NCBI GenBank assembly: GCA_021432655.1
Contig: MU271235.1
Span: 109,073-129,072, forward strand
DNA length: 20,000 bases
Origin: Atractiella rhizophila
Taxonomy: Eukaryota
Reading direction: 5' to 3'
Shown here one piece after another: positions 2,768 through 20,000 of the stretch. The notes below the pieces were generated by a model. It saw nothing but the letters and a program-made list of their open reading frames with translations, did no database searches and was not told where the DNA came from. The translations under genes were made by a program, and so were the position numbers. Every line of letters starts with the position of its first letter. The stretch's first letter is position 1.

Positions 2768-3169
2768 CTGGAGGAAGTATGAGGAAGTAGATAAGTGAGT
2801 TCTCGGGACTTCGCGTTGTCGGAGCTGAAATGCAGGATTCAGGACATAAAAGTAGCTACTAGAGCTTTATTGCTATTTATTCAGTAATACCATGGATTCT
2901 GTTATCAGTGTTCAGCAAACATTGTGGGAACCCGACTCGCTAACTATTTGTTCAACTTGACAGAAACACAAACGATGCCGCAACTGAAGATGAGATGGCC
3001 GGCCAAGAATCCCATTCGGAAGCCTGGCTGTCATCCACGAAGTCCACAAAAAGCCAGACTCTGCCATCCGGTGTAGAAGGAAGGAAGAAAACCGCATTGT
3101 TACATGGTTTTGTTTGATCAAGTTGGATCACCTCCGCCATCAAATATCAGATGCTGTCGTGCCGTCACC

Positions 3170-4728
3170 TCAAGCAGCATCATCCTCCTTGAATTCCACA
3201 AAAAGCTCCAACTGCACATCTCGCTTCTCTACCTCACGTCGCAGAGCTTGAATTGCATTCCTGCCTTCTTGCGTCTTAACCTCCAACATTTCCGCATTCG
3301 ATCCGATAGAGTATCTCTTGATCCGTGGAAACGAATGACGGCCAATAATATCGGCAAAAGCCAACCAGACTCGTCCATCTTCCTTTCCGTTAAAGGAAAG
3401 AGAGCAACCGTCCGACACCCCGAGGATGGAAAGACAGCTAGTGCATTTTTGGTGTTGAAACAGGGAAAGAACCGACGACGGGAGATCGAGGAGTGCGTTG
3501 TTGGTTGACGCTAGATCGGATAACGACAAATAACCCTCAAAATCACTGGCAAAGCGCAAGAGGTCCATGGGCTCAACTGTTGAGACTGGATTGACATGAA
3601 GAACGATCAGGCTTCGTTTCGTCTTGAACAGGGTCGATAGCCCGCCGTAACTGAAGTCGCAACCTTGCAAGTAGACGGCTTTCGATTTAGACACACGAGG
3701 TTCGCTTGAAGGAATGTTGAGTTTCAGTGCACAAGCTATGATGGTGACAGTGTCTATAGACGGGAAGTCTGGAAGTGAAGGCAAGACTTCCAAAATGTCG
3801 TAGCGATCTTCCATTTCCACCGAAGACCCGGAAACGGTCAACTGACGCAAGCGATGGAATATGAAAGGGAACTGGAGCAGATTTCTGTGTTCAGGTCGAG
3901 TCGGAGGGAGCAAAAGATCAAGGTCATGCAGTGTAGGAGAAGCCAGCTGAAGGAGATTCGTGATGTTTCCCAACTCTGATGGGGTCCATGCTGCAGGGTG
4001 CAGACAAAGACTCTTGAGATTTGAAAGAGAAGGAAGCTTTGCTGGAACAACCGTATTGATCAAGGAAAGACTTCGCAGCTCGAAATTATGTTCGGTCACA
4101 TCAAAATCTATCGTCCCAAAGGAGCATTCCAAGGATTTGAGGTGAGTCGACGTTCCGAGCAGCGGAAATACCTCAGATATGGGTTGACCAGGAACATAAT
4201 GGATAGTGAGGCCTGTCAAGCTGGTAAAGAAGGAAAGGTCCAATTCGCCAAGGTTCGGAAGGAGAAAAATCCAAAGAAGTCGAGTTCAAATGTCAGAGAA
4301 GTGATGTAAGGAGCTGCCTTCGAGATGAACAAGCCGACATAGTGGCTAGCCAAAATCGATCCTTCACAGAACCATTCCTGGCACCATTCTGCGAGGTTGT
4401 TCTTCCCGTCCTTATCACACGGCTCCGATGGTTCTTTACACAAAGGCTTGTGGAATGTGAACGAGGCTCCGTTTACAGAAATGCTTCGTACGTATCGAAA
4501 ATTAGATTGGTTTTCGAAAAATCGTTGCAATCGAAATAGGTAACGTTCAAAACGGATAGCCTTGAGCGGATCATGCGGAAAGTGGAGGACGATAGGTGTG
4601 TTTGAGATAAGCAAAGGACGAGCGATCGATTTCCATTCTGCGCACACCAAGTGGCATTGAAGCAAGTCATGTGTAGGAAGGAAGGCGAGAATGGCGCCAA
4701 TGATCTCAACGGGTGCAGTGGACCTCAT
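3170..4728 (-). CDS. F-box protein, paralogue 1 (one frameshift at ~4218)
   Basis: N-terminal F-box PVEIIGAILAFLPTHDLLQCHLVCAEWKSIAR followed by leucine-rich repeat-like segments. ORFs 4216-4728 and 3170-4243 join if one T is restored in GCTTGACA (paralogue 2 has GCTTTGACA). Colinear with 6425-7981. Confidence 0.85.
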
Positions 4729-6424
4729 GGAGCACCCGATGCAGCGATTGAAAGCTCTTAAGGTAGATATGCCTAACAGAACACTATTAGCACTTGTCCG
4801 ACGCAGGCACAGCTCACTGATATGTTGTCGGAGCGGTCAACCTTGAAGCTAAGCTTGAAGGCAGGTGGGGAAAGACTCTTGCGACGACCTGCGACATCCA
4901 CCATCCTATAACCTCTCTTACATCCACTTGTGCCTCCTTGCGTCTATCCAGTTGAGGACGACCTCGTCAGTGCCCCCCTCTCATGTTACCTTCTACCCGA
5001 CTCCACACATCATCATCCTAGGTTATATAACTAGCAACCTTCCATCTGCTTAGTATCCGTCCAAATCTTGTTTAACTTCATGAATCTGTCTCAGTCTCCG
5101 CTACCATGAGTCTCGAATCTGTCTTGGTTGCAGAGGTGTATTGATGCTTTTTGTGGAGCGGGTGAGGATGAATCCGTCTGGTCTATGAGACGACTGCGGG
5201 CTTTGGTGACCACTGGCAAGTGCACAAGTAGATTCAACATGAATTCGCTCTGCTCCTACCTCCTCCTGCCGTGTCCGTCACTCCCTCCCACTGACGTTCA
5301 TATCAAACTCGTTGTTGCCGAAAACACTAGAAGTGGACGACCTCCAAAGCCGCCAGGGCTCGAATCGGCCCTCCCTACTGTTTCTCGGATCACATCTCTC
5401 CCTCCATCCCAATTGGTGCCTCGACCGACTACTGGAACGCTGGCTCCAAGTCTTGGGTCTAAATGGCAGACGATCCGGATTGTCACTGCTCACAAGCGCA
5501 ACCAACAGCAACCTAACGTCCAATAGTTGACGTTTGTGGCTGCTGCAACCTGCGGGAAGGGTTATCATTGGAACTTGATGGGCAGGGGCATAGACGGAGG
5601 CGTTTGCTCGCTCCGTCCCTTCTCTCATCCGCGGCCGCTCTAGCGCACCGTCCCGCTCACTCGAACGTCATTTCGGTGTCTCTGACTCTGACTCCTCGGG
5701 TAGCTGCTCTATTCTAGACGTTCCTCTGGGATTTGAACAATGCCGCCATTCATTCCACGACTAGACCAGGGGAAGTGACTCTCTGTCTTCAGCGATGCGA
5801 TTGTTCGATAAGGACGATGAGAAGGAGGACGAAGGAGATTAGAAGGACGATAAGTGGAAGCAGAAGATTGAGGAGTAGGTTTCTTTACTCGCCGCGTTTT
5901 TCGGACAATTGCTGATGCGATTGGGAACTAGATTGCAAATATTTCCCGTAATAGTCGGCGCTGGCGCAGCTTTGTCGAAGAGATGGTACGTCTCTCATTC
6001 TCTTTTTGATGCTGTTAGACAAATGTAATTCTTATAGGTCAGCACCAACATTTTGGTTGTCAATCTCGATGAACGAAGCACGATTTGAACTCGCTGGGCG
6101 TTTACGGTGGCATTATTAAGAGAAGGGGACGGTAGAACCATCAGGGTGGTATAAACTGCGATCTGACAACAGTACGATGCGTACGAACTAAGTGAGCCTT
6201 TGACATGAAGCTGGATTTTCAGGCTAAGGGATAAAGTATTTTCATTGCTATTTGCTCAATAATATCGCTACACTCGATTTTGTTAACAATATTCTACAAC
6301 GATAACCGCATTCTTGGTAAAAGAAAAGGAATAACAGATGAATACAACACATATTCGAAGCTACAGGACGGCGCATGCTAGCCAAGAGGGATCTCTAACA
6401 GCCAGATGCCATCGAGTCGTCATT

Positions 6425-7981
6425 TTAAGGTGCGTCATCCTCGATGTATTCCACAAAAGTGCTCAACGGCACAACATTCTGCTGCTCCACGGCTAAATCT
6501 AAGGCCCGAATCGCGTCTCTCCCTGCTTGAGTCCTAACCTCCACAGGCTCTCTTTCCGACCCAATAGAGTATCCCTGGATCCCCGGAAACGAGTGACGGT
6601 TGATAGTATCGGCAAAAGCCAACCAGACTCCCGCATCTTCCTTCCCATTGAAAGAAAATAAGGCACCAGCCGAAAAACCAACGATGGAAAGACAGCATGT
6701 GCAATGTATGTGTGGAACGACGGAAAGGAGCTCCATATCACGTATGGGATCGCTGGCAGTTGTCGACTCGAAGAGCTGCAGAAATCCCTGGCAATCATTA
6801 GCAAAGCGCAAGATATCCATGGCGGACTGGGACCGGATCCCTTCGAGCGGAGCGACATGAAAGGAGATCATGTTTCGCTTTGTGGTAAATAGAGATGATA
6901 ATCCGGTGTAGCTGAAGTCGCAATTTTGCAACAAGACGTTTATGGGTCTAAACACCCAAGGTTCGAATGAAGGAGCTTTAAGACATATTGCACTATGTTT
7001 GATGGCGACGATGTCCATAGTTGGGAAATGTGGTAATAAAGGTAGGACTTCCAAAACGTCGAGGCGCCTTGGTTGGTCGGAAGGTCCGGAAACGCTCAAC
7101 TGCCTCAAGCGAGGGAAAACAACGGGGAATCGGACAAGATGCCTGTGCTCATTTTGAGTGTGGAGCAGTGCAAGATTGAGGGTTTGCACTGTAGGAGAAG
7201 CAAGTTGAAGCAGATTTGCGACATGACCGAGTTCTGCTGGAGTTCTTCCTATAGCGTGGACATGAAGATCCTTTAGATTTGAAAGGGAAGGAAGCTTTGC
7301 TGGAACAATTGCAGAATTCAAGGAAAGACTTTGCAACTTGAAACTGTGTTCAGCTACATCGACGTCTGCAGTTCCAAAGGTGCATTCCAAGGATTTTAGT
7401 TGTCGTGACGCCCCAAGCAGGGGAAATATGGCAGATATAGATCGGGTAGGAACATATTGGATCTTGATGTCTGTCAAAGCTGGCAGAGAAGGAAACGGCC
7501 ATTTTTGCATGGACTCCCAACCGAAAAAGGCGAAAAAGTCAACTTCAAACGTCAAGGAGGTGATGTAAGGAGACGCGTTCTCGATGAACGAGCGAACATA
7601 ATCGCGAGCCAAAATATTCGAACCATCGTCGCCGCACAATTTTCTATCCATCAGATCCTTCTCCTCGCCCTCGGGTTCTTTCCACAATGGCTGGTTGAAT
7701 GTGAATGCAAACGCGTTCATCGAAATCCTTCGTACATATTGAAAGTTGAGCTCGTTGTCGAAAAATCGTTGCAATCGGAATAAATAACGCTGAAAACCGC
7801 CGTCTTTAAGAGGGTCGTGCGAAGTGTCAAAGACGATAGTCGTTTTCGAAATGAGCAAAGGACGAGCGAGCGACTTCCATTCTGCGCTCACCAAGTGGCA
7901 TTGAAGCAAGTCGCAGGTAGGAAGGAACGCAAGGATGACGCCAATAATCTCGAGAGGTATAGTAACGGAGCTGGACGTCAT
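6425..7981 (-). CDS. F-box protein, paralogue 2 (518 aa from ATG 7981)
   Basis: F-box IPLEIIGVILAFLPTCDLLQCHLVSAEWKSLAR in an intact ORF, similar end to end to paralogue 1. The ORF-track start at 8047 lies inside a predicted intron (acceptor CAG at 8033-8035). Confidence 0.9.
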   Translation of the reverse strand: MTSSSVTIPLEIIGVILAFLPTCDLLQCHLVSAEWKSLARPLLISKTTIVFDTSHDPLKDGGFQRYLFRLQRFFDNELNFQYVRRISMNAFAFTFNQPLWKEPEGEEKDLMDRKLCGDDGSNILARDYVRSFIENASPYITSLTFEVDFFAFFGWESMQKWPFPSLPALTDIKIQYVPTRSISAIFPLLGASRQLKSLECTFGTADVDVAEHSFKLQSLSLNSAIVPAKLPSLSNLKDLHVHAIGRTPAELGHVANLLQLASPTVQTLNLALLHTQNEHRHLVRFPVVFPRLRQLSVSGPSDQPRRLDVLEVLPLLPHFPTMDIVAIKHSAICLKAPSFEPWVFRPINVLLQNCDFSYTGLSSLFTTKRNMISFHVAPLEGIRSQSAMDILRFANDCQGFLQLFESTTASDPIRDMELLSVVPHIHCTCCLSIVGFSAGALFSFNGKEDAGVWLAFADTINRHSFPGIQGYSIGSEREPVEVRTQAGRDAIRALDLAVEQQNVVPLSTFVEYIEDDAP

Positions 7982-8051
7982 CTTCACTCGATGTCTCAAT
8001 TCAGAGATTGAAAGGTTGTAGCGCAGATGTACCTGACAGAGGAACATCAGC

Positions 8052-8058
8052 AGTTATT
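8052..8058 (+). repeat. Left target-site duplication AGTTATT
   Basis: The identical 7-mer abuts the right TIR at 18163-18169. Confidence 0.9.
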
Positions 8059-8102
8059 CCCTGGGAACTTGCAGCTGCTGGTTTGACACCTTGTAGACAC
8101 TG
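8059..8102 (+). repeat. Left terminal inverted repeat (44 bp)
   Basis: CCCTGGGAACTTGCAGCTGCTGGTTTGACACCTTGTAGACACTG matches the reverse complement of 18119-18162 at 43/44 positions (mismatch at 8088). Confidence 0.97.
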
Positions 8103-8662
8103 TTTAGACTGGACGCTGTCTCAGCAGCGTCTTCTGCCAAATCTAGCCGCTGGTTTGACACTGAAAAGACGCATTTATTGGCTTTTTAGACGCTTGCGCA
8201 CTTTTGCGCAGGCGATCTTTAGACTCTTGATAAAAGTTGAGGTAACTGCGAAACAGACACTGTCGGGAACAGGTCTAGACTCTGTTTAGACGGTACTTCG
8301 ACGTTTTTTTCGACGTTATTCCGTCGCCTGTTTGACACTCAATAAAAATTTTTTGTCACCGCTTAGACGCTCGCGAGACGCAGCTTCTCTAATTTGAATT
8401 CCTCCCTTCGACCCTCGCCAGACACTGAGCAAGGACATCTGGGACTCTGCTGGGATGCTCATCAGACAGTGTTTGAGCTGTTTCGACAATTATTTGACAC
8501 TACAGAAACCCTTCGAGACGCTTGCAAAGGTTGTCTCAGACTCTTCCAGGTCGCTCATCAGATGCTCGTTAGACCCTCTGCCGACTCTGCTCGGACTTTG
8601 AAATATTCTTTTCAGACTTTGCTTAGACACTCGCAGGACTCCACTTAGACTTCCTTAGACCC
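8081..8662 (+). repeat. Left subterminal repeat region (TTAGAC / TTTGACAC / AGACRC motifs)
   Basis: About 20 mostly co-oriented copies, e.g. near 8081, 8103, 8153, 8186, 8218, 8285, 8331, 8363, 8493, 8569, 8623, 8645 and 8655. GCTGGTTTGACAC occurs twice. A few inverted copies (GTGTCT, GCGTC) lie at 18070-18137. Confidence 0.75.
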
Positions 8663-8769
8663 TTCTGGGTCCCTCTTCCAATTCCAGTTCCACTTCCATC
8701 CATTGCATGCATGCTTCGCTCTTCTACCTCAGAATCTTCTTTGTCCCCAATATCCCGCTATTTCGCGTG

Positions 8770-9761
8770 TTACCGCATCGATCGCGACTCGAATTCCGAA
8801 ACAGGAAGTTGAAAGTTGGAAACCTGTAAGTAGTCAGCCTAAACATAAACTCGATATCTCGTGCTTACTTTCATAACCGGAAACTCCCAACAGATAGTTG
8901 AACGTGCTAATCATAGTGTTAGCAATGTACCAACAAAAAAGTACAGACATTATAGAAGACTCACCATGTACGGCAACAACGCTGTAGATGTTGTTTAGAA
9001 ATAGAATGGTCATTCTGCTGGTTCAAAAGCCAATTGTGTGTTAGTGTATCATCATGCAAACGGAAAGTAACGAACCTTCGACATTTGTCTGTGATGCGAA
9101 GAAAAGCTTCCTGACACCTCGTTAAACAGGGCATGCAAATGCAAACAAACAAATGAACAATTGCTCACCAGTACCGGACCTGTGGGTTCATCGGCGTACG
9201 ATATCAACTTGCCATCGGTTTGGTTTGGTTTGGTTGATTGATTTCTTGCAAAGATGATGTGAGTGCCGAGAAGATGCACAGGGGAAGTGAATCTGTAGGG
9301 CATACCGTGTAGATCACGAAATCCATCCAGTCATGATTGCAGAATAGGTTTTGAACTGAAGAACCTTTGCATCAGCTAATGCTTATTGAATACTGCAGCC
9401 ATGCTCTTTCAACTTGACCAGTATGACAATGAGCAAGCTATTCACTGGTGCCCAATAGGATCTAGAGCAGAAATACTCACACGACTGTGCCTAAAAATCC
9501 TTCATTCCAAACCCCCTCCGGAAAGATCTTATCGATGAATAACCATTGAGATATCGCGCGGTTAGAATTGAACAGGTGTGGATAGCACGTGGACGGCAGG
9601 ATGGAGCAGGTGGCGCAAGGTGGTGGTTGTGTTGGTGCGGTGATGTTAGCAAAAACAAAAGCCACATTAGCGGAACCGATTGATTGGACACTCTGTAGAC
9701 GCTGATTGGATGAGATCACGACGCCCGTCTGTCGCGTCGAGACAGTTTTGGTTGCTGGCAT
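8770..9761 (-). CDS. Transposon-borne multi-exon hypothetical gene (5' structure unresolved)
   Basis: Four consecutive canonical introns (9111-9168, 9018-9075, 8907-8964, 8824-8868; 45-58 nt, with branch motifs) splice in frame to GPVL|EAFLRITDKCR|SRMTILFLNNIYSVVAVH|ARSTICWEFPVMK|VSNFQLPVSEFESRSMR*. Upstream exons (9306-9355, 9481-9761) are less certain. Confidence 0.45.
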
Positions 9762-9796
9762 GTTTCCACCAACAACATATCCTCCCGGAACAGAGC

Positions 9797-10411
9797 ATGG
9801 AGCCTAAGGAGGAGTATCCATTTCGCAATCAGTTTCGAATTTTGTAAGCGCCCCTTGTTCTCATCTACTCGGTTTTTGAGTGCTTTCCCTTACTCAGGCG
9901 CACACCTCCTCCCACCAAAGAGCTCCGCAACTACGAAAAAGTTATCTTAGAGACCCCCGAGCGCATCAATGTCATTACGGACGAAAAAGAAAGAGCGAAT
10001 ACCATCAGGAAGTGGGGTAGTACGTGTTTTTGTTTTCATGGACGCTTCGCCAACTGTGATGCAGACCGTCAGGTTCGATACATCCCCAAAAAACTCCTCA
10101 AGCCTCCTCACCACATGGAACGTAACTCGTTCGATGTCAATCAGGTTATTCAAGAGCTTATCGCAGAAGACAGCTTCGTCGTTCGAAAGGATAGGCGCGT
10201 CAGGATGTGTGAAAAATGGATTGACCGTGTGAGAATGAGTATGGATAAGATGGATAAGGTCCTGGCGCAAGAAGGAGAGCTTAATAAGGATGAGTGGGAA
10301 CTATTGGAAACATGGGCAACCTATGCGAAGCATAGCATTGATGATTTGGAGGACTTTACCGGAAGACAAGTACGAAGACCGTTTCCTTTTGAAGATCCTT
10401 TCTGTGATTAA
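9797..10411 (+). CDS. Transposon-borne hypothetical protein, ~171 aa, 3 exons
   Basis: join(9797..9843,9898..10019,10065..10411); introns GTAAGC..CAG (54 nt) and GTACGT..CAG (45 nt). Translation MEPKEEYPFRNQFRILRTPPPTKELRNYEKVILETPERINV...RRPFPFEDPFCD*, followed by an AT-rich 3' region. Confidence 0.7.
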
Positions 10412-10835
10412 AGGTTGTACTTGTTTTCATTACAAAAAAAACAACTTCTGATTCTGAGATTTGGCTCCGTGTAAATGTGATAATAAAACAAAGAAAATAA
10501 GATATTGCAATCAGTTTGTCACTATCCACTTGAGGTACTGCTTTACTTTAAAAATGAACTCACGATATGCATGCTATTCGAACAATATTGATTTCATTTT
10601 ATCTCGGAAGGTACAGACATGTTTGTAACCGAACTGAGTGGCACTGAAATGACAAAACAATCATATGACAGATAGCGTTAAGAAGTGGAAAGCATTTTAC
10701 AGAAACTTTGAAGGTGATGCGAGTACTGACCTGAATTTTTCACTTTAAAGCGTTTTAAGTCTTGACAATCATACAAATGCAAAGAAAGACTTAATGGAAA
10801 GGATAAGTTTATAAAAATAACTTTTAGAATATTCT

Positions 10836-13242
10836 TTATGCGGAAGATGTAGAAGCACAACGAGAGCTAAATATGCGAACTAGCTCTTTAATTCTGCTGT
10901 CGCGGGTTTTGAATTGGGAAACAGAGACAGTTTCATATGGCTGTAACGCAATTCATTAGTTAGGATAGATGAGGAAGAGAAAAGATGCTCACGTTGTATT
11001 GTAACATGATCTTAAAATCCTCTGTGCCCCACTTTCGCTCGGGAGCTTGTGCGAATGCCTTGATTTCGTTTGCCACCATGCCTTCGATCATACTGATCCT
11101 ACTTTTGGCAGTAGCAATTTCTTCTTCGGTGTGAGTGCTAACTTTGCGACCTACTGCTTTCTTTTCTTTCGTCTTTGAGAGTTGGCTATTGGCAGGCTCT
11201 TTGCGTGGAGCAGGGCGCTTCCTCGTTTTTGCTTCGATGTGGAGCTTTGTTGTAGGAGGAATGGATTCGGGAGGAGAGATTGGATTGGCTGGATCTTGAG
11301 ATTGCGGATTGTCGGACGGATTTTGGTTCGTGTTTGGTTGGGACATCGACGTTGTGTAATCAGGGATGGATTTGGCCTGAACCTGCAAGTCATCATGTGG
11401 ATCGTGGTATGACGACCTTGCAGGAAGTTTGTTTGCCTCATTGTACTCTCCTTTGATGAGTTGATCGAGGATGGTTGAGACTGATTGTGTCTGCTAGGCT
11501 ATTCGGTTAGAGTTACACCATAGAAAGAGCAATAAACATACCGATGAAGTAGTTCCTCCTCCATCTGTCCATGCGAGACAAAGACTTTCCGCCAATCTTC
11601 CTAGATAATTGAAATCCAGAAGGAACGGCGTCGCCATGCCAGTGGAATCATTCGAATTCACTGCCGTGTTATATCGATCGCAAAAGCGCTGACTGACGTT
11701 GATTCCCTGCTTCACTGTCTCCAGAAGGCTTTGGATACTTGCCACAGATCCGACATTCTTCCACTCCCTCAGTTGCCAGAGCGTAGAAGCTCCTAACGAA
11801 TTGTGACCAATCGAGTCTCCGCGAGGACTTAATCGAAGGTCTTCAGACTGGAACAATTCTTCGTCGAAACCTTCTGGAGCGTCGAAATCATGGCAAGCTC
11901 CGGTCACAGAGGCACCCAGTTTTTCTGTAGCATTTTTCGCGACAAGACCATCAACTGAGGCGGAAGGAGGGGTCCCTCCCACGACAAAGAGGCTCAGACA
12001 CGATAGGTTCGTTCGTATAGCATTGTCGTGTGGAACTTTGGATTTGAGGACATCTAAAATATAATATCAGCTCGATGCAAGCATCCTTTAAGAGAGGGAA
12101 TACCAAGTACGTTCTTGAGCCTGTTTCCATGGACCAAGTCTTGGCCAGTCTCGCTGGGTTTTTCTGTTGTTCTATCCCTTACTGTGAGACAGTGTTCTTG
12201 GAAAGGGTAACGAACATAATGGCGTGAATTGAGTCGGATGGATTCACAGTTTTATCCTGTTCCAACAACTGTCAGATTCATCACATCAGTATTAAAACGA
12301 AGATGCCTGTCTTCACAGCGACTATGGCCTTTTGTACTCTCTTCGTCTTCGAAAAGCCCTCATCTGAGCACTATGTCAGCAACAGATATTGAGTAGAGGG
12401 TGTTACAAACCTGGACTTTGACCAGTTTTCTGTTTCTTCTGCTGGCCTCCTTCCTGCTCCTCCGCGCATCTCTTCTTCACCTTCTTCCTTTCTTCGCCCA
12501 CTTTCAGCTTCTTGTTCTTTAAAGCTCTTTCGAAGAAGATCCTCCCCATCCAATCGCTCTGGCCCAGACACAGAACGGAGCGATACTTCTCCTCCAGCTT
12601 ACGAAGACAGCGATTCAGAGTCTTCGGGTTTTGTCCTTTGATAGTTTCCGTTCTGTCGAGGTGTTGAGTGCACATTGTGGAAGCGGCTTGCTGAATAACT
12701 TCAGCCTCAGACTGTGAGAGCGGCGTGATTTCGCTGATCTGTTCGTCTTCGATTTTGGCATGAAAGAGGCAGGTGGTGGGAGACAGAGAGTTGTTCTGAT
12801 GCGCGCTCTTGGTGTTTTGGACGGCGTCTTGTCGTTTCCAGTAGATTCCTAGTTCCTTCGCTTGCTCTTCATCAATGATGGGGACGTAGACCTCATCATA
12901 CTGTGGGCTCCAGGCCATCGTCTCCGTCACGTAGCTTGGGGAGACTGTTGCGGTAGAGTTGGATAATGGGTTGCTCAGTGTGGGAGGAGGAGCTGTGAAA
13001 TAAATCGTATTAGGAATAGACGGACCGCGAATCCGAAGTTTGTCCAGTTCTATCCGGACCCTTTCCACCTCCTCATTTCGCTCCCTGTACAGCGCTTTCC
13101 ATTTTTCCACTTCCTCCACCTTGACCTCTAAATCAAAAATCCTATTCCTAAGCTCGACAACGTAGGGGTGATTCAAGAGTTGGTATTTGCTTGCCGTGTT
13201 GAGGCGTTCAATAAAAGCGGCTTCTGACGTATCGTCCTCCAT
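10836..13242 (-). CDS. Transposon second gene (putative TnpA-like accessory protein), ~700 aa, at least 7 exons
   Basis: Introns 12364-12410, ~12257-12316 (donor uncertain), 12172-12215, 12054-12103, 11494-11541 and 10941-10992 join ORFs 12403-13242, 11494-11982 and 10960-11388 in a single frame. Has an N-terminal coiled coil, a helical region ending LEEKYRSVLCLGQSDWMGRIFF, and basic NLS-like tracts. Extra exons are possible (5' to ~13492, 3' to ~10594). Confidence 0.7.
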
Positions 13243-13564
13243 CGAGAAGAGAGCCTACATGTAGATATACAGTTTGAAACGGATGGGGAGTAGGGGAGGG
13301 GATTATCAACTGGAGGGGATTGTGTATTAGGAAATGTGACTTCCAAAATCAATGTCGTGACACGCTCTGCTAAGTCGGCGTTAAACACGTCAAATACGTC
13401 AAATAATAACGTTTCTATCTTACCCAAATCACCTCAAGATGGCCTTGTTGCAGTGAGCTTATGATGCGACGTATTGTTATATCAAGCCCCATCTATTTCA
13501 TCGCTCTCAGTTTCATTCTATTTCTTATAAGCGAACTGGCCTTAACCTCCACCGGCGAAAGTGA

Positions 13565-16500
13565 ATGACGACCTCAAACCAGTCCGTTGACCACAAAACA
13601 TCCCAGAAGCCCCGAGCCCGTGACCGTAATACGGCTATTGCAAAAGCAAGGCGAGCGACGAAGGCAAATGCAATTTTTGAGAGGGATAATATCGCTCTTC
13701 AAAAGGTAGAGGGTCGCCGTGTTGGACGAGGGGAAACAACTATCCCGTTTGGAATCAAACTGAAGCTTCGTCCAACGGTCTTGAAACACACAAAGGCATC
13801 GGGGGCAGCTGGTGAGGATGTTGATATGGAGCTTGGAGCTGCAGATACAGTCCCCAGTAACGACATCTTCAACGTCGATGATATCCAAGAAGCTCCTCCT
13901 GACGATGATCTGATGGCTGCCGGTGGCTTGGATTTGAGCCGGGGATTCGAGGAGGGAGATGGCGAGAGAGACGATGCTGGGATGGAAGGGATCTTGGGCG
14001 AGGCGGACGGGGTGGAAGGTGACGAATATGTATTCGACAAAGAGGAAGACAAAGAGGTCCCTGTCTACGACAGCGTTGGAGGACTAGCCATTGCAACTGA
14101 ACTGAACAAGGACACTACTTTAGAGTAAGCTTGGATATGAGAATAGCATCGAAAAATACTCACAATGAGCAACAGGGACGTGCGAAAACTCCTTCTTCCG
14201 CAAATGGAAGTCGAAAGCGAAACACGGAGTCGACCTATAGGACCCGACGACATTCGCCCTCTGTCCGAAAAGGAGCGCAACACATTGTCTGAGTTCCGTG
14301 TGCATGTCAGCATAACGAAACTGTCCAAAGCTGGAAGGACCATCGCGAGAATTGGATCAACTCTGGCAAGGAAATGGGGACACTCACGGAGGCCAACCAC
14401 ATGCTTGAAGACCTCAGTGGGCTGAAAGGAGAATGGCTGCCCATGTGCGTCAACTCGCGTCTTTCCTAGACGCGAAATATTCCCATCTCGAAAAGTGTCC
14501 TCTTTCCCGCAAAGTCCAGAAAATTGAGAAAGCTTGCGAGCAACCTCGTAACGGTCCAACCACAAGTCGAACGGGCTTCCCCAACATCAGAGCCAAACTC
14601 CAGAGCAAGGCGCGCAAATTCTTCCTGTTCTGTAATCCAATCGCACGAATCAAGGCGATGTTTAAGGCGCCATCAACAGCGGAAGAAATGGGGAACTTTG
14701 CTCGGAGGATGGGGGAGACATTGGCCGCGACTGAAGCGCTCATGGACAAGCTAGGGAGGAAGTATCAATATGTCGATATCGAAAGCGGAACGGTCGCTCA
14801 ATCCCTCGTCGAAAAAGAAGCGGGTTTCCTGGAAGATATGCGAGAATCAGTATTCATATCCTCAACAGACGGTGCGAGTATACACGCAACCAGAAACAGC
14901 AACATCTGGTTTGTTATCCTCTCATTCCTTTCCTTTAATCCCGCAGAACGATACAAGAGAGTTCGTACCTTCTTCACCCTAGGAATTCCTGGTCCAAACA
15001 ACCCCGTCGATATCCTTTCTTTCTTCAGTACCTTCTATCGAGCAATGGCGTCGTTGAGCGGCGGTTTGTGGATGTGGGATGCTTCGAAGAGAGGGTGGTT
15101 CATTTGGAAAGGATGGCTGATTAACAAACTTGGTGCGTATGGTTGTGACAACTAGACTGAGACTGAGCAAGGCATAGCTGATATGCTGGGGTCGGCTAAA
15201 GTGAATGGACTCACGGGACATCAAGGGAAGTGTGGGTGTCGGTTCTGTAGAATCATTGGTCAACTACTTGGTGGCCACTACTACTATCCACTCACACTGA
15301 GGCATCAAGCTGATGGAACGATTCCTTCCAATCGACAAACAAGCTACGACCCTGAAAACCTTCCTCTTCGAACGACCGACGATTATCTCCAGGCCCTCAA
15401 GGACCTGGCCCTTGCTCCCAGCCAAACGTCGAGAGGCGAGGTAGCGAGGGATACAGGGGTAATGATGGCTTCGATCGCCTCTGGTTTGAAGACTTTCCGA
15501 GATCCGTGGTCGTTCTTTCCGGGAGATCTCTCTCATCTTAACTGGAAGAACAATGCGGAATTAATCTGGGATTGTTTAATGGGAGCGAACAAGCAGAAGG
15601 ACTTACCGGAACAATGGCATCCGTCTCCAAAGGTCCTGGAAGAGATCGGAACTCTGGTCGAAGCCGCCCGAAACGACATTCCTTACGCCTTCTCTCAGTC
15701 AGCTCCTCGCAACGTCGATAAGTTCCGAAACACTCAATACAAGATGCATGAGTGGTGGGACATCTTCGACTGGCTGCTGATTCCCCTGCTGTCATTGTTC
15801 GATAATTTTGGGGAGGATGTCAAGACGACAATTGATGAATTTGTGTATGCGTCTCGGATGTCCTGGCAACATTCGATAACGGAGCAGGAGAGGCTGGACA
15901 TAAAGGGGAGGTTCGCCAGGTTCGCGCAACGGTTCGAGGACGTCTTTGTTTACGATCAGCATAATCGAATATCTCGTCTTCCCATGTGTATGCATCACTT
16001 GCTTCACGTCGCCGACTGGATAGAGTGGTGGGGACCTCCAATTCTCTACTCACAGTTTCCGATGGAGAGTACGATTGGATTCCTGAAGGATCGGATTAAC
16101 CAGGATCGTTTGTATATGGAAAACTTACTGAATCAAGCGCTGGAGCAGGAACGCCTTGCCATTGTCAACATCCTCTATCCCCCCAATTCTACGGCTACAA
16201 CTTCCCGATTCCGAACCTTCAAGCCGGTAGGACGAAAGAACGGCGTGTGCTCACCTCGATACCCCTACATTCCGCTTACTAGGCTTAGGGGAGAACTCCG
16301 TGGGAGCCAATACTGGACAGAGTGGATTCAGGAGGTTCGCCTTGTTCGAGAGCTTTGTGCTTCACAAAACTGTGACTTGACGGGAGTCGACTTGGAAGGA
16401 GAGGTCGCGAAATGGGAGCATTGGGGCCGTTGTAAGTTGGAGAATGGTGACATGGTTCGTTGCCGAAGGCTCGAGAGGAATAGAGATCAAAACACGCGCC

Positions 16501-16944
16501 GTGCTCGGAGATTCGAGGTCTGTCATCTGCTATACACAAACATAAGTATCTGAAGGCAAGACAGGCAAGAGACGAAGCGGGACAGACAATTTTCGGAGAA
16601 GCCGTCCATTATCTGCGGATTCCCGCACATATTTTAGGCGAAAGCTGCATGGATAAATCTCGAGACCGTCTCTTCGTTCTTGCGCAGATGCTCCAACAGC
16701 TCGAGAGCGATTATCAGTCGGAAACCCTGTGCTATTGGACTACCCAATACCGACTGATACCTCTGGAGTGGCTTAGTAACTTGATAGGCATTTCCAAGCA
16801 AAAGATCAGAAAGAGGATACCTTTGTTTGGATCCTGCATCGTCACCACTCCGACAAACAAGAAACACACTTTTCGTGTGAGCCGGGAGCAGACGACGATC
16901 TCGTTGATGACAGTGAAGGAGTGGGTTTGGAGACACATGTATGA
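13565..16944 (+). CDS. CMC/CACTA (Tnp2-like) DDE transposase, ~1080 aa, 4 exons, three apparent 1-nt frameshifts
   Basis: Exons 13565-14124, 14176-15132, 15178-16517 and 16565-16944. Motifs: Cys cluster MCVN..KCP..CEQPR, SSTDGA (D1), GIPGPNNP, LADMLGSAK (D2, formed by splicing), GHQGKCGCRFC, GDLSHL (DxxH), HHLLHVADWIEWWGP and QFPMESTIG (E). Frameshifts near 14308, 14456 and 16792. Confidence 0.92.
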
Positions 16945-16970
16945 CTTCAGTTTCGCTGCGACTTCGATTC

Positions 16971-17640
16971 TCCAGCTGCAGGTTCAAGTTCGAAGAATAA
17001 GGACGTGTAATTGCGCGAATATATGCAACTAAGAGCATACAGTGACTACTGCCATGATTAGAAGCTGTACGTGGTTCATGGAAGTCAGAAGCGCACCTTA
17101 TCAATAACAACATTGACCGGGACCTGCCATCTTCCTCTTCCAAGCCGCTCCGTCTCCGACCCCCATCCACGACATCAAATCCGTCGCTTGGCATGAGCTT
17201 CCACAAGCCCTTGTGTGACGTTAAGACCCTCAATCGCGTAGTACTGCAATCTATCCGAAAGAGGGTAAGGAGGTGATATTGGAGGCAGAGCGTCGAGTAG
17301 GAGAAGGCTGTGAAATGAGAAGCTTGATCGGAATGTTCGAGGTCCAGCGCCGAATCCATCTCGTGGTAAAGGAGGGTCGGACGGACGTATGTGAGAGGTT
17401 TCTGCAACAAATCCAAATCATTGATCAGTACACGAAGAAAGGCATGAGATTGAATAGAAGCTAGCTTCGTCGCAGTGGTAAGTGCCTTGTCTCCATGTCC
17501 CGTACGCCGATCCTAGACCTGCTATGCTGCTGAATGTCGTTCGTTCCAATGTCACAAATGCGAACGAGAAGAAGCAGTGCGTGGCGAGGGACATCGGATT
17601 CGGGTCGTTCTGTTCGCTTGATAATGCAAATCTGGGTTAT
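16971..17640 (-). other. Possible additional spliced or degenerate gene in the right arm of the transposon
   Basis: Minus-strand splice signals (CTGAT...TTGCAG acceptor near 17403; GTGCGC..TTAG intron ~17028-17096) and long open frames. The correct reading frame cannot be fixed. Confidence 0.25.
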
Positions 17641-18118
17641 TCGAGGACAAAGGACAGGACAAAAGGAGGGAGGAAAGCAATAGGAAGGTCAAAGAGCAGG
17701 ACGCCGGGGTTGGAGTAAGCAACATAGCTGTGACATCAAAATGCATTGAGGGATGGAATAAGAAAGGAAAGTTGGTGGCTGCAGAGCAGGGCGAAATAGT
17801 AAGCGTGAGCTTCAAAAGCTTTCGCAGCTAACTGGGACTGGAAGGATACATGTGGAAGAGAAAAACACACCTGTTGCAATACCCCTCAACTGCTGAGGCA
17901 CTCATTGGATGGTGGAACAAGTTGATTGCGTTGTTCAACGTGCGCGGTTGGGCAGGGCAGACGCAAGTTGGGTTATTTGCTAGTAGTTGTCACTCGTCAA
18001 TTGGCTGATGCGGTTGATGTAATTGATGTAATTGATGAAAAACCGCCAAAGTTTCAAATCAAGCCCACAGCGTCCAGAAGTGTCTCGAAAGCCATTGAGA
18101 GCGTCATAAGGGTGTCTC

Positions 18119-18162
18119 CAGTGTCTACAAGGCGTCAAACCAGCAGCTGCAAGTTCCCAGGG
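18119..18162 (-). repeat. Right terminal inverted repeat (44 bp)
   Basis: Plus strand reads CAGTGTCTACAAGGCGTCAAACCAGCAGCTGCAAGTTCCCAGGG. Confidence 0.97.
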
Positions 18163-18169
18163 AGTTATT
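18163..18169 (+). repeat. Right target-site duplication AGTTATT
   Basis: Identical to 8052-8058. Confidence 0.9.
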
Positions 18170-19083
18170 CCTAGTAAAGTATAGCCTAATACCTTAGAGA
18201 AATCACCGGAAGACTCACCAGAGAGTGAGATGGTCGTTGACCAGTTGCGGGTTGTTCCAAATTCCCATGCAACGCTGCCAGACTGTCAGTTTGCGCAAAC
18301 CCGCGACTCCCCACGACCTCATCAAGGTCTCCCAGTCGGGAGATATTCTCGAGGTTGACGTAACACGTGTACATAAGGTGAGCTCGATCAAAGCGTCTCT
18401 TTTCGTGTTATTGGCCTGCTTATTTCTTTCTCCAGCCATAACCAGTCATTCAAGCTGGTCCAGGCATGATTGATTTTGAACAGCAGCAGGATATCCCAGG
18501 CTTCAAAGTGTGGAACGAAGCCTCCACCCAGCAAGAGAAAAAACGTGTTTTCTACCGCTAGTACATGCCAGTACATGCTAGATTTCTTTTTTACCGGTGA
18601 CCGTCACTGAGAGTGTGGTGTTTCTTCTCTTCTGAAGGATCGGAGGATTGCTCATACAGTGCCATTCTTTCAGCACGTTGTTACAAAGCGGATTCCTGAC
18701 TATAGCTATCGACACCAGTGTTGGTCTTTGTGGCCAACTTTCGTGCTCACATCTGCGCGTTTAATGTTGGAGGACCTGCTGCACCAGCACTGAAAACGTC
18801 TACGCCTCGCAAATACCTCTTTTTCGTTTGACCTGGTTCGTTTTCTCAGGCTTTAGGTCGTCCTCTCCTCAACTTGTACGTCATCAAAAGCTAGGTACAA
18901 TATGAACCTGTAATATGAACCTGTAATAGGGGCTAACTGATCTCTTGTGATTCATTTGTCTCGCAATCTTTAATAGTACATTATTCGAAATTGGGAAATC
19001 GTGCTCTGCGTCTTCTTCAGCAAGAGTTTAGATTGCACAAGAGAAAACGCACAGGGAACCCCTAGTTAAAGGGATATCTGCTT

Positions 19084-19327
19084 TCATTTCTGACCGCAGT
19101 TGCACTTGCCAGCGTCGCAAGACGAGCAGCCTAGCATTCATCCACGATAACGTCAACCTTCTCGATTCAGGACAGGAGGCTGGAGGAGCAATAACGCACT
19201 GCTGCCGCAGGAACATTGGGCACCAGCAGTGCCGGAGCAGCTGCATTTGTCGTTGCTGCATCCACATCAGATTCCATTTTCATTGCAGTTTCAGAGTGAA
19301 TTCTGGAGCAGCGAACCTGCAAGGCAT
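19084..19327 (-). CDS. Metallothionein, 37 aa, 3 exons
   Basis: complement(join(19084..19130,19200..19255,19317..19327)); introns GTTCGC..CTGAT..CAG (61 nt) and GTGCGT..TTGAC..TAG (69 nt). Protein MPCSNDKCSCSGTAGAQCSCGSSCSSCDAGKCNCGQK* has 9 Cys, three CxC, one CxxC and no aromatic residues. Confidence 0.88.
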
Positions 19328-19674
19328 GATCTCGCTTTTGGTTGCAGTTGTTGATACTATTTGGTAGTCGGCGGAGGAGTCTCAAAGATCGAAATGAGGT
19401 GTCACGGGGGGGGAATCCTTGTCTCTACTCCTTTTATGACAGGGAGAACTTGATGGCTACGTCAAACACTGTCAGATGACGTGAGAGCGGGGGAAGAGGT
19501 CAGGCCAGCTGAAGTAGGCGCTGGCAGGACGAAGAGATCACGCTCTAATATCTCATTGCCCACGTCTGCGCATCTCCGACGACGGGTCGACGTCGTCCCT
19601 GCAAGGCGAGCATTGTGACTTTCGACATTCGTCCCTCTGGCCACCAAGGATCAGAACCTCACTCATCAATCACA

Positions 19675-20000
19675 ATGATTCCTTCAAGTTCCAAGGCTCT
19701 GCTCAATCCTGGACATTCATATGCCACAACTACCCACATCTCGTTCACCTATCACCAACAGATCATCTCCCCAGCTGCCTTCTCATACACGTACTACCTC
19801 TCCCTCCCTCCCGCCTATACGGAAGACTCCACGCGTCATTGGCCACTCCTCCTCTTCCTCCACGGTGCGGGCGAATCTCAACGGACCGCCGGGGAATCCT
19901 ATCCCGCTTTGAGGCACGGCGTGCCAAAAATCGTGCTCTGCTACGATCGTTGGAAGAGCGGGAAAGAGCCGAAGGTGGACATCCCCCAAGCAAGCAAGCT
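19675..20000 (+). CDS. Alpha/beta hydrolase (esterase/phospholipase/predicted peptidase type), 3'-partial
   Basis: Frame is open from ATG 19675 to the window end and includes YTYYLSLPPAYTEDSTRHWPLLLFLHGAGESQ...HGVPK, the typical PLLLFLHGxGE oxyanion-hole strand. Confidence 0.85.
   Translation, partial: MIPSSSKALLNPGHSYATTTHISFTYHQQIISPAAFSYTYYLSLPPAYTEDSTRHWPLLLFLHGAGESQRTAGESYPALRHGVPKIVLCYDRWKSGKEPKVDIPQASK

Follow-up and report, generated by a model that had tools for sequence, protein, structure and literature searches.

A probable young, low-copy 10.1-kb transposon with a divergent Tnp2/EnSpm-like transposase and three further transcription units in Atractiella rhizophila

What kind of element, if any, is the segment of about 10 kb that lies between two inverted repeats in contig MU271235.1 of the root-associated basidiomycete Atractiella rhizophila (GenBank assembly GCA_021432655.1)? 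We analysed a stretch of 20,000 nt around it, positions 109,073 to 129,072 of the forward strand, which is called the window here and to which all coordinates refer. A preliminary description, made from the sequence alone, had read the segment as a complete, young CMC-type transposon with four or five spliced genes and as a candidate for an undescribed system. Our results make it likely that window positions 8059-18162 (10,104 bp) constitute a young, low-copy cut-and-paste transposon with a divergent Tnp2/EnSpm-like transposase and three further transcription units, termed unit A, gene B and gene C (Table 1). Not all parts of the preliminary description could be upheld, however.

According to the repeat finder, the window contains a single long inverted repeat, whose arms span 8049-8102 and 18119-18172. 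By base-by-base reading the terminal inverted repeats (TIRs) proper are 44 bp long and match at 43 of 44 positions. Both are directly abutted by AGTTATT, a perfect 7-bp target site duplication (TSD); a 7/7 match is expected by chance in about 1 of 16,000 cases, and beyond both copies the sequences to the left and to the right are unrelated. This confirms the near-perfect TIRs and the intact direct repeat that had been seen before. The termini of the element read CCCTGGG..CCCAGGG. Within the left ~600 bp the motif TTAGAC occurs nine times in a single orientation where 0.06 copies would be expected, compared to four copies elsewhere in the window, where ~19.4 kb were counted on both strands (Poisson P ~4e-17). 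A second motif, TTTGACAC, has five copies in the window, of which four are located at 8082-8493, again in one orientation; the copy at 8082 is situated inside the TIR. CACTA elements typically have subterminal arrays, although a one-sided array is unusual. In its composition the element is close to its surroundings (GC content 47.4% vs 49.1% in the flanks), compared to which it shows neither RIP-like nor CpG depletion, and the tandem repeats found in the window are trivial ones only.

A second line of evidence comes from Logan contigs of public sequencing runs, which were placed on the window. In the DNA run X1 there is one contig with a length of exactly 10,104 nt; it corresponds to 8059-18162 with 15 substitutions (0.15%), no gaps and no flank bases. 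The assembly graph of X1 branches exactly at the element termini and, following the logic of de Bruijn graphs, a contig without flank bases points to at least two flank contexts for the element in that run. Six X1 contigs from the flanks differ from the window by ~0.4-2.8%, and another one (record 5), which may be a paralogue, by ~12%. The depth of the element contig is 375, that of the two lowest flank contigs ~140 and that of the other flank contigs ~240-325. With the two ~140-depth contigs assumed to be haplotype-specific, these depths suggest ~2-3 haploid equivalents of the element. The earlier view of a young TIR transposon is supported. Further X1 contigs match only the transposase piece 15723-15773 before they continue into unlike sequence, with loose ends at 15723, 15741 and 15773, which suggests diverged transposase relatives elsewhere in that genome. 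In metagenome contigs, a scan with 29 nt of the TIR gave no match, and a search for related loci with a transposase exon gave 29 pattern matches of which none was confirmed. A tandem F-box paralogue (see below) served as a surrogate for the empty site, but its similarity stops near 8041, short of the insertion site.

The ends of the X1 contig also bear on two other interpretations. An inner pair CACTG..CAGTG (8098-8102 and 18119-18123) was considered as the true CACTA ends and rejected, since the sequence flanking it is inverted and not direct and the contig ends at 8059 and 18162. Furthermore, the segment might be no transposon at all, the inverted repeat having arisen by chance or by recombination around ordinary host genes. 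This we regard as hardly credible. It is true that one single copy was directly seen and that the annotation lists B and C as ordinary hypothetical proteins, but several findings speak against it: the inverted repeat of 44 bp is directly bordered on its outer sides by a perfect 7-bp direct repeat, a transposase gene is enclosed, the subterminal repeats are oriented, and in an independent assembly the contig breaks coincide exactly with both termini.

The transposase gene was recognised by its relatives, its motifs and its splice signals. The plus-strand open reading frames (ORFs) 14409-15155 and 15156-16553 represent one frame that is split by a 45-nt GT..AG intron (15133-15177). This intron and those at 14125-14175 and 16518-16564 were assigned from splice signals and homology, and 14449-14519 is a possible fourth. 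With the 457-aa exon as query, an exhaustive HMMER search yielded 740 proteins at E<=1e-3, of which 19 reached E<=1e-30. Identity is ~32-33% for the best full-length relatives and 51-64% for the short transposase-like fragments P0004, P0005, P0008, P0023 and P0044, and one 95-aa fragment is identical. When 20 relatives were scanned against Pfam, 14 had Transposase_21 (Tnp2, PF02992) above cutoff, while the six others were P0011 and five short fragments. In an alignment of 36 transposases (A1; scanned at E<=1) there were 33 members with PF02992, seven with a weak match to DUF4218, one with a weak match to Plavaka (E=0.048) and none with KDZ. The 153 relatives retrieved cover 14151-16900 only when mapped onto the window. 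Within this region D (STDG), D (ADMLGSAK), C(2)C (CRFC), H(3)H (HHLLH) and E (PMES) all align with conserved columns of 16 relatives, and the C-terminal exon 16565-17032 aligns with relatives too. As far as can be judged from these motifs, the catalytic core is intact in this copy. A profile of the 36 transposases found nothing better than E=0.32 among PDB sequences, hence no sequence link to RAG1 or Transib.

The other three units form, together with the transposase gene, the two head-to-head pairs that had been recognised before, and as transcription units both pairs stand: A and B by spliced contigs in three runs, C by an annotated protein and the transposase by homology. In the left pair, an interval of ~80 bp (9636-9714) separates the divergent A and B. 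Unit A has six introns (8822-8866, 8907-8964, 9018-9075, 9110-9167, 9245-9305 and 9413-9480), all GT..AG on the minus strand and 45-68 nt in length. Their joints are shared by the contigs of X3, X4 and X5, except that the joint 9245-9305 is missing in X4. The spliced RNA has stops throughout all three frames; the sole sizeable ORF, 95 aa from an ATG at 9761, begins upstream of the observed contig ends and stops at the first exon junction. Since no long ORF is left after splicing, unit A is read as a spliced long non-coding RNA (lncRNA) or as a decayed gene, and the protein gene formerly placed at 8770-9761 is abandoned. Rfam, run over the whole window, had nothing in unit A and one sub-threshold match outside the element. 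The idea of a snoRNA host was dropped because the introns are so short. Gene B has introns at 9844-9897 and 10020-10064, an ATG at 9710, a stop at 10409-10411 and a transcript unit of 9714-10364. In X3 the contig depth is 423-428 for A and B vs 6-58 per bin across the rest of the element; as contig depth reflects expression poorly, we take this as no more than a hint that the A/B pair is the most strongly transcribed part of the element. Uncovered parts of the element in X4 and X5 were not taken as silence, and the runs X4-X17, with their small shares, were not used to infer habitat or strain.

Gene C has its first exon within the minus-strand ORF 12403-13254. tblastn places its exons at 13242-12412, 12170-12099, 12060-10993 (interrupted near 11494 by a small intron) and 10940-10839; one or two further short exons between ~12363 and 12215 are beyond the resolution of this method. 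The frame is kept over ~7 exons, including one of 283 codons. The ends of RNA-type contig pieces coincide exactly with exon edges, 12411 in X3 and 10993 in X4, which supports splicing, here from the ends of pieces and not from joints. Towards the transposase gene, the X3 contig with exon 1 is interrupted at 13369, and a minus-strand intron of 54 nt (13370-13423, GTAAGA...TTAG) would fit the sequence there. This contig also reaches into the transposase gene on the plus strand, and the two transcripts may overlap at their 5' ends.

The products of B and C are hypothetical proteins of Atractiella rhizophila in NCBI. For the gene B protein there was no Pfam match above cutoff, no homologue besides the annotated protein and no usable match in the ESM Atlas; gene C matches no Pfam family and nothing above 0.84 in the ESM Atlas. 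A collection of 5.8 billion proteins, searched with word and length limits, contained no other protein similar to either. AlphaFold2 predicts both as all-helical, P0155 (gene B) at low confidence with a mean predicted local distance difference test (pLDDT) score of 46.1, and P0154 (gene C) as mostly disordered with a mean of 38.6. The gene C sequence has an N-terminal helical, coiled-coil-like stretch, two lysine/arginine-rich stretches and low-complexity segments rich in Q, P and S. The extra units are transcribed and spliced according to the RNA-type contigs, and B and C belong to no family that we could recognise; the preliminary description had recognised no function for the extra genes. 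A fifth gene in the right arm, which had been considered, is a low-depth transcript signal only (X5 contig 17394-17778; X4 joint 17598->17871 with replaced letters). A minus-strand ORF of 292 aa (16634-17512), which is antisense to the transposase gene at its 3' end, appears R/S/L/H-rich by eye and has no Pfam match. From the four or five genes proposed there remain the transposase, B and C, accompanied by the non-coding unit A.

Where could these units have come from? They might be host DNA captured by transduplication, as known for Pack-MULEs and plant CACTAs, with A a decayed fragment and B and C copies of host genes. Six well-formed introns without an ORF are what one would expect of a decaying captured gene, and A and B have a strong divergent promoter of their own. 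However, in the 5.8-billion-protein collection, within the limits of that search, only the annotated proteins of this very locus resemble B or C, and the X1 depth is flat over 8672-14674 at 85% likeness, with the single element contig and no close parental copy. We therefore consider a capture unlikely.

Table 1. Position and strand of the features of the element in the window, and the evidence for each
Feature	Position	Strand	Evidence
Left TSD copy, AGTTATT	8052-8058	.	Same as 18163-18169; outer flanks dissimilar
Left TIR, 44 bp, begins CCCTGGG	8059-8102	+	43/44 vs right arm; X1 contig starts at 8059
Left subterminal repeat zone	8104-8660	+	Nine TTAGAC in one orientation and three TTTGACAC copies
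Unit A, spliced transcript of 7 exons, no long ORF	8615-9636	-	Joints in X3, X4 and X5 contigs
Gene B, orphan protein of 200 aa (P0155)	9710-10411	+	Spliced contigs in X3, X4 and X5; annotated protein maps here
Gene C, orphan protein of 704 aa (P0154), ~7 exons	10839-13242	-	100% match to annotated protein
Shared divergent promoter/5' untranslated region of gene C and transposase	13243-13564	.	Lies between both start codons
Transposase gene, Tnp2/Transposase_21-like DDE	13565-17032	+	Relatives, motifs, splice signals
First frame break, conserved N-terminal region	14299-14314	+	P0023 alignment and profile frames; no gaps vs X1
Second frame break, within zinc-finger motif	14458-14474	+	Profile positions 38-93 end at 14457, 100-115 from 14475 in another frame
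Right arm, no convincing gene	17033-18118	.	Low-depth transcript signal only
Right TIR	18119-18162	-	Inverted repeat; X1 contig stops at 18162
Right TSD copy, AGTTATT	18163-18169	.	Matches left copy

Comparison with known groups places the element closest to EnSpm/CACTA in its transposase. The relatives are PF02992 proteins, and this domain is a marker of fungal CMC elements with an expansion in Pucciniomycotina (Muszewska 2017, PMC5751038). The motif set given for CMCT, namely D, D and E along with C(2)C and H(3)H (Kojima 2025, PMC12730594), recurs here, with C(2)C, and likewise H(3)H, lying after the second D and ahead of the E. Further likenesses are the short subterminal repeats and the presence of a second large gene next to that of the transposase. 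In maize En/Spm both TnpA and TnpD are made from one transcript, whereas gene C is a separate divergent gene and not an alternative splice form. With Plavaka (PF18759) the element shares the affiliation to a fungal CMCT lineage of basidiomycetes, but against one weak match among the 36 members of A1 (E=0.048) stand 33 with PF02992; PlavakaA and PlavakaB are described with 2-3-bp TSDs and with termini TGT..ACA or CATCA..TGATG (Kojima 2025, PMC12730594).

Several observations weigh against the interpretation as a young element with an EnSpm-like transposase. On PF02992 the window transposase itself scores 16.7 and 14.7 bits, below the gathering cutoff of 28.6, a cutoff that relatives at 25-33% identity pass; together with the low identity to its full-length relatives, this may set it apart from EnSpm/CACTA. 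The defining features of CMCT are a TSD of 2-5 bp and CA..TG termini (Kojima 2025, PMC12730594, section 3.1.6). Here the TSD measures 7 bp (EnSpm, 3 bp), a length taken from the single insertion observed, and the ends are CCCTGGG..CCCAGGG instead of CA..TG or CACTA (CAC..GTG). In the right arm there are almost no subterminal motifs outside the TIR. X1 possibly derives from the same sample as the window assembly and is then not a fully independent strain, and the RNA nature of X3 and X5 was deduced from their spliced joints. For B and C, the lack of homologues and the low pLDDT (46 and 39) are also compatible with non-functional ORFs. Finally, the transposase frame is broken near its N-terminus, and all X1 reads that collapsed into the element contig share one indel state. 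With two CMCT features deviating at the single insertion, the element is not filed as a plain EnSpm member. From the earlier designation "CMC-type" the siding of the transposase with Tnp2/EnSpm was retained, while the 7-bp TSD and the CCCTGGG ends do not conform to the CMCT features of that source. We treat the element as a variant lineage with a divergent Tnp2-like transposase that would work like EnSpm.

The broken frame deserves a closer description. In the relatives, the N-terminal region ends in a zinc-finger-like motif (DMCPNSC.AYTG...CP.C.EPRY), a pattern present in 41 of 153. A profile of 33 such regions finds colinear matches in the window, which are spread over three different frames: positions 21-37 at ~14246-14314 (weak, E=0.19), positions 38-93 at 14299-14457 (E=1.8e-7) and positions 100-115 at 14475-14552 (E=0.0065). 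The intervals between these matches are too short for introns. In P0023, the closest relative over this region, residues 137-180 and 183-229 align to adjoining DNA in different frames. The second break may be skipped by the putative GT..AG intron 14449-14519; a contig of 4,344 nt from X3 has ~60-70 nt more removed than nameable introns account for, which is compatible with this intron and no proof of it. Owing to the frame change, the ORF from the ATG at 13565 (exon 1 and the putative intron 14125-14175) meets a stop codon at 14423-14425. A protein of ~830 aa that comprises the full catalytic part but lacks the conserved N-terminus could start from in-frame ATGs at 14374 and 14433, and ~2.5 kb of coding sequence downstream of the breaks remain open with all catalytic motifs kept. 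Since the X1 contig is gapless relative to the window, the breaks are not assembly slips peculiar to the window. Judged from its reading frames, this transposase copy would be either recently damaged or the source of a truncated enzyme, and for movement the copy probably needs the truncated product or another copy. Hence it is doubtful whether the element is complete, as it had been called: the conserved N-terminal region lies in three frames, and to get from the ATG at 13565 to the catalytic domain frame changes are needed.

This leads to the question whether the copy is dead or non-autonomous, with extra "genes" that are neutral orphan ORFs plus transcription noise from promoters of the transposable element and that have no role for transposition or for the host. 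Such a scenario is quite possible, although we do not favour it. The two frame breaks in the conserved N-terminal region fit with it, and so do unit A without an ORF, B and C without homologue, Pfam family or confident fold, and the 292-aa antisense ORF, which has no Pfam match and a composition more like non-coding translation. Yet the transposase frame is open for ~2.5 kb past the breaks with all catalytic motifs, the frame of gene C is kept across ~7 exons, one of 283 codons, and splicing of A and B is identical in three runs at a depth above that of the transposase. Moreover, the window and X1 versions of the element agree at 99.85%, and the ends of the contig indicate more than one flank context. 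Therefore, we prefer the reading as a young, low-copy transposon.

The 7-bp TSD calls for a comparison with the KDZ class as well. Kyakuja elements are described with a 7-bp TSD and CA..TG ends and without TIRs (Kojima 2025, PMC12730594, section 3.2.1), Dileera and KDZ1 with an 8-bp TSD (Kojima 2025, PMC12730594; bioRxiv 10.1101/2024.08.15.608186), so that the TSD of the element is within the 7-8 bp of KDZ. KDZ1 of Cryptococcus neoformans, a member of the Dileera clade, has 10,944 bp and 236-bp TIRs besides its 8-bp TSD; it codes for a transposase of the PF18758 type with CxC1, two proteins of unknown function and two non-coding RNAs (ncRNAs), and its transposition was observed (bioRxiv 10.1101/2024.08.15.608186). 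Its architecture, three genes and two ncRNAs, is the closest published one to the element: both are TIR elements of ~10-11 kb from basidiomycetes with a TSD, a transposase, two protein genes of unknown function and non-coding RNA. An antisense ncRNA annotated over the transposase domain of KDZ1 may be compared to the position of the antisense ORF 16634-17512. Despite these similarities, a Kyakuja-like KDZ element in place of a CMC relative is very unlikely. No match to the KDZ domain (PF18758/CxC) was found in the window protein (E<=0.1), in the 20 scanned relatives (E<=0.001) or in the 36 members of A1 (E<=1), where PF02992 with 33 members and seven weak DUF4218 matches prevail. Kyakuja ends are CA..TG without TIRs, in contrast to the 44-bp TIRs and CC..GG ends of our element. 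From KDZ1 the element differs in the same lack of a KDZ/CxC signal, in its 44-bp TIRs and 7-bp TSD and in that B and C have no detectable similarity to other proteins.

Extra genes have also been reported from TET/JBP carriers, fungal DNA transposons from several superfamilies, among them EnSpm and Plavaka in Pucciniomycotina and Agaricomycotina, some of them with a third protein of unknown function (Kojima 2025, PMC12730594, citing Iyer 2014, which is known to us as cited there). The element resembles these carriers as a fungal DNA transposon with passenger genes, but no Pfam family was found for B, C or the other ORFs, a test that very divergent PE-type proteins might escape. The TET/JBP fold is a double-stranded beta-helix, whereas B and C are predicted all-helical. 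As to novelty, multi-gene fungal DNA transposons of ~10 kb have been published that contain orphan ORFs and ncRNAs, going by what the KDZ1 preprint (bioRxiv 10.1101/2024.08.15.608186) reports on its element, and the term "undescribed system" is too strong in this respect. In the literature we found no described equivalent of the element; Repbase was outside the scope of this search and may hold an entry.

How might such an element work? By analogy with its family, the DDE transposase would recognise the 44-bp TIRs and the one-sided TTAGAC/TTTGACAC subterminal repeats, excise the element and reinsert it with a 7-bp staggered cut. Gene C, seen as nuclear on account of its helical and basic stretches, could be the accessory, TnpA-like factor of the element, and gene B and lncRNA A could be element-borne passengers or regulators. 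One may go further and see in the Tnp2-like core, the 7-bp TSD, the CCCTGGG ends, the one-sided TTAGAC array, an accessory gene C for an orphan nuclear protein and a highly expressed pair of lncRNA and small protein, which would regulate transposition or silencing, an undescribed, CMC-related lineage at the level of a superfamily, but we judge this rather doubtful.

In the surroundings, tandem paralogous F-box genes are located left of the element on the minus strand (3148-4719 and 6403-7963; 72-77% identical, six collinear repeat blocks). For the F-box gene 6425-8053 (minus strand; Pfam F-box, E=9e-6) the element is situated ~75 bp upstream of the likely start codon and may affect the promoter of this right-hand copy. 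At the left end of the window a run of N (664-859) lies inside an expressed, spliced gene, and contigs of X1, X3 and X5 are loose at 663. To the right of the element, at 18900-20000 on the minus strand, there is a gene with GT..AG introns at 19005-19053, 19129-19199 and 19255-19317, for which the X3 contig depth rises to ~47,000, far above the remainder of the window.

If further copies confirm the 7-bp TSD and the non-CA termini, a Tnp2/EnSpm-like core would be able to work outside the 2-5-bp geometry of CMC/CMCT, and one more lineage would enter the classification of transposons, as hAT7, ESTA and PHISTA did in 2025. For annotation, where the practical value mainly lies, the genes BT69DRAFT_1330740 and BT69DRAFT_1317178 would have to be regarded as transposon-borne and not as ordinary host genes. 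If our reading is true, the element is, after KDZ1, the second independent case of a basidiomycete transposon of ~10 kb with orphan genes and non-coding RNAs. Such an architecture would then recur across transposase superfamilies, and the passengers may act in the control of transposition.

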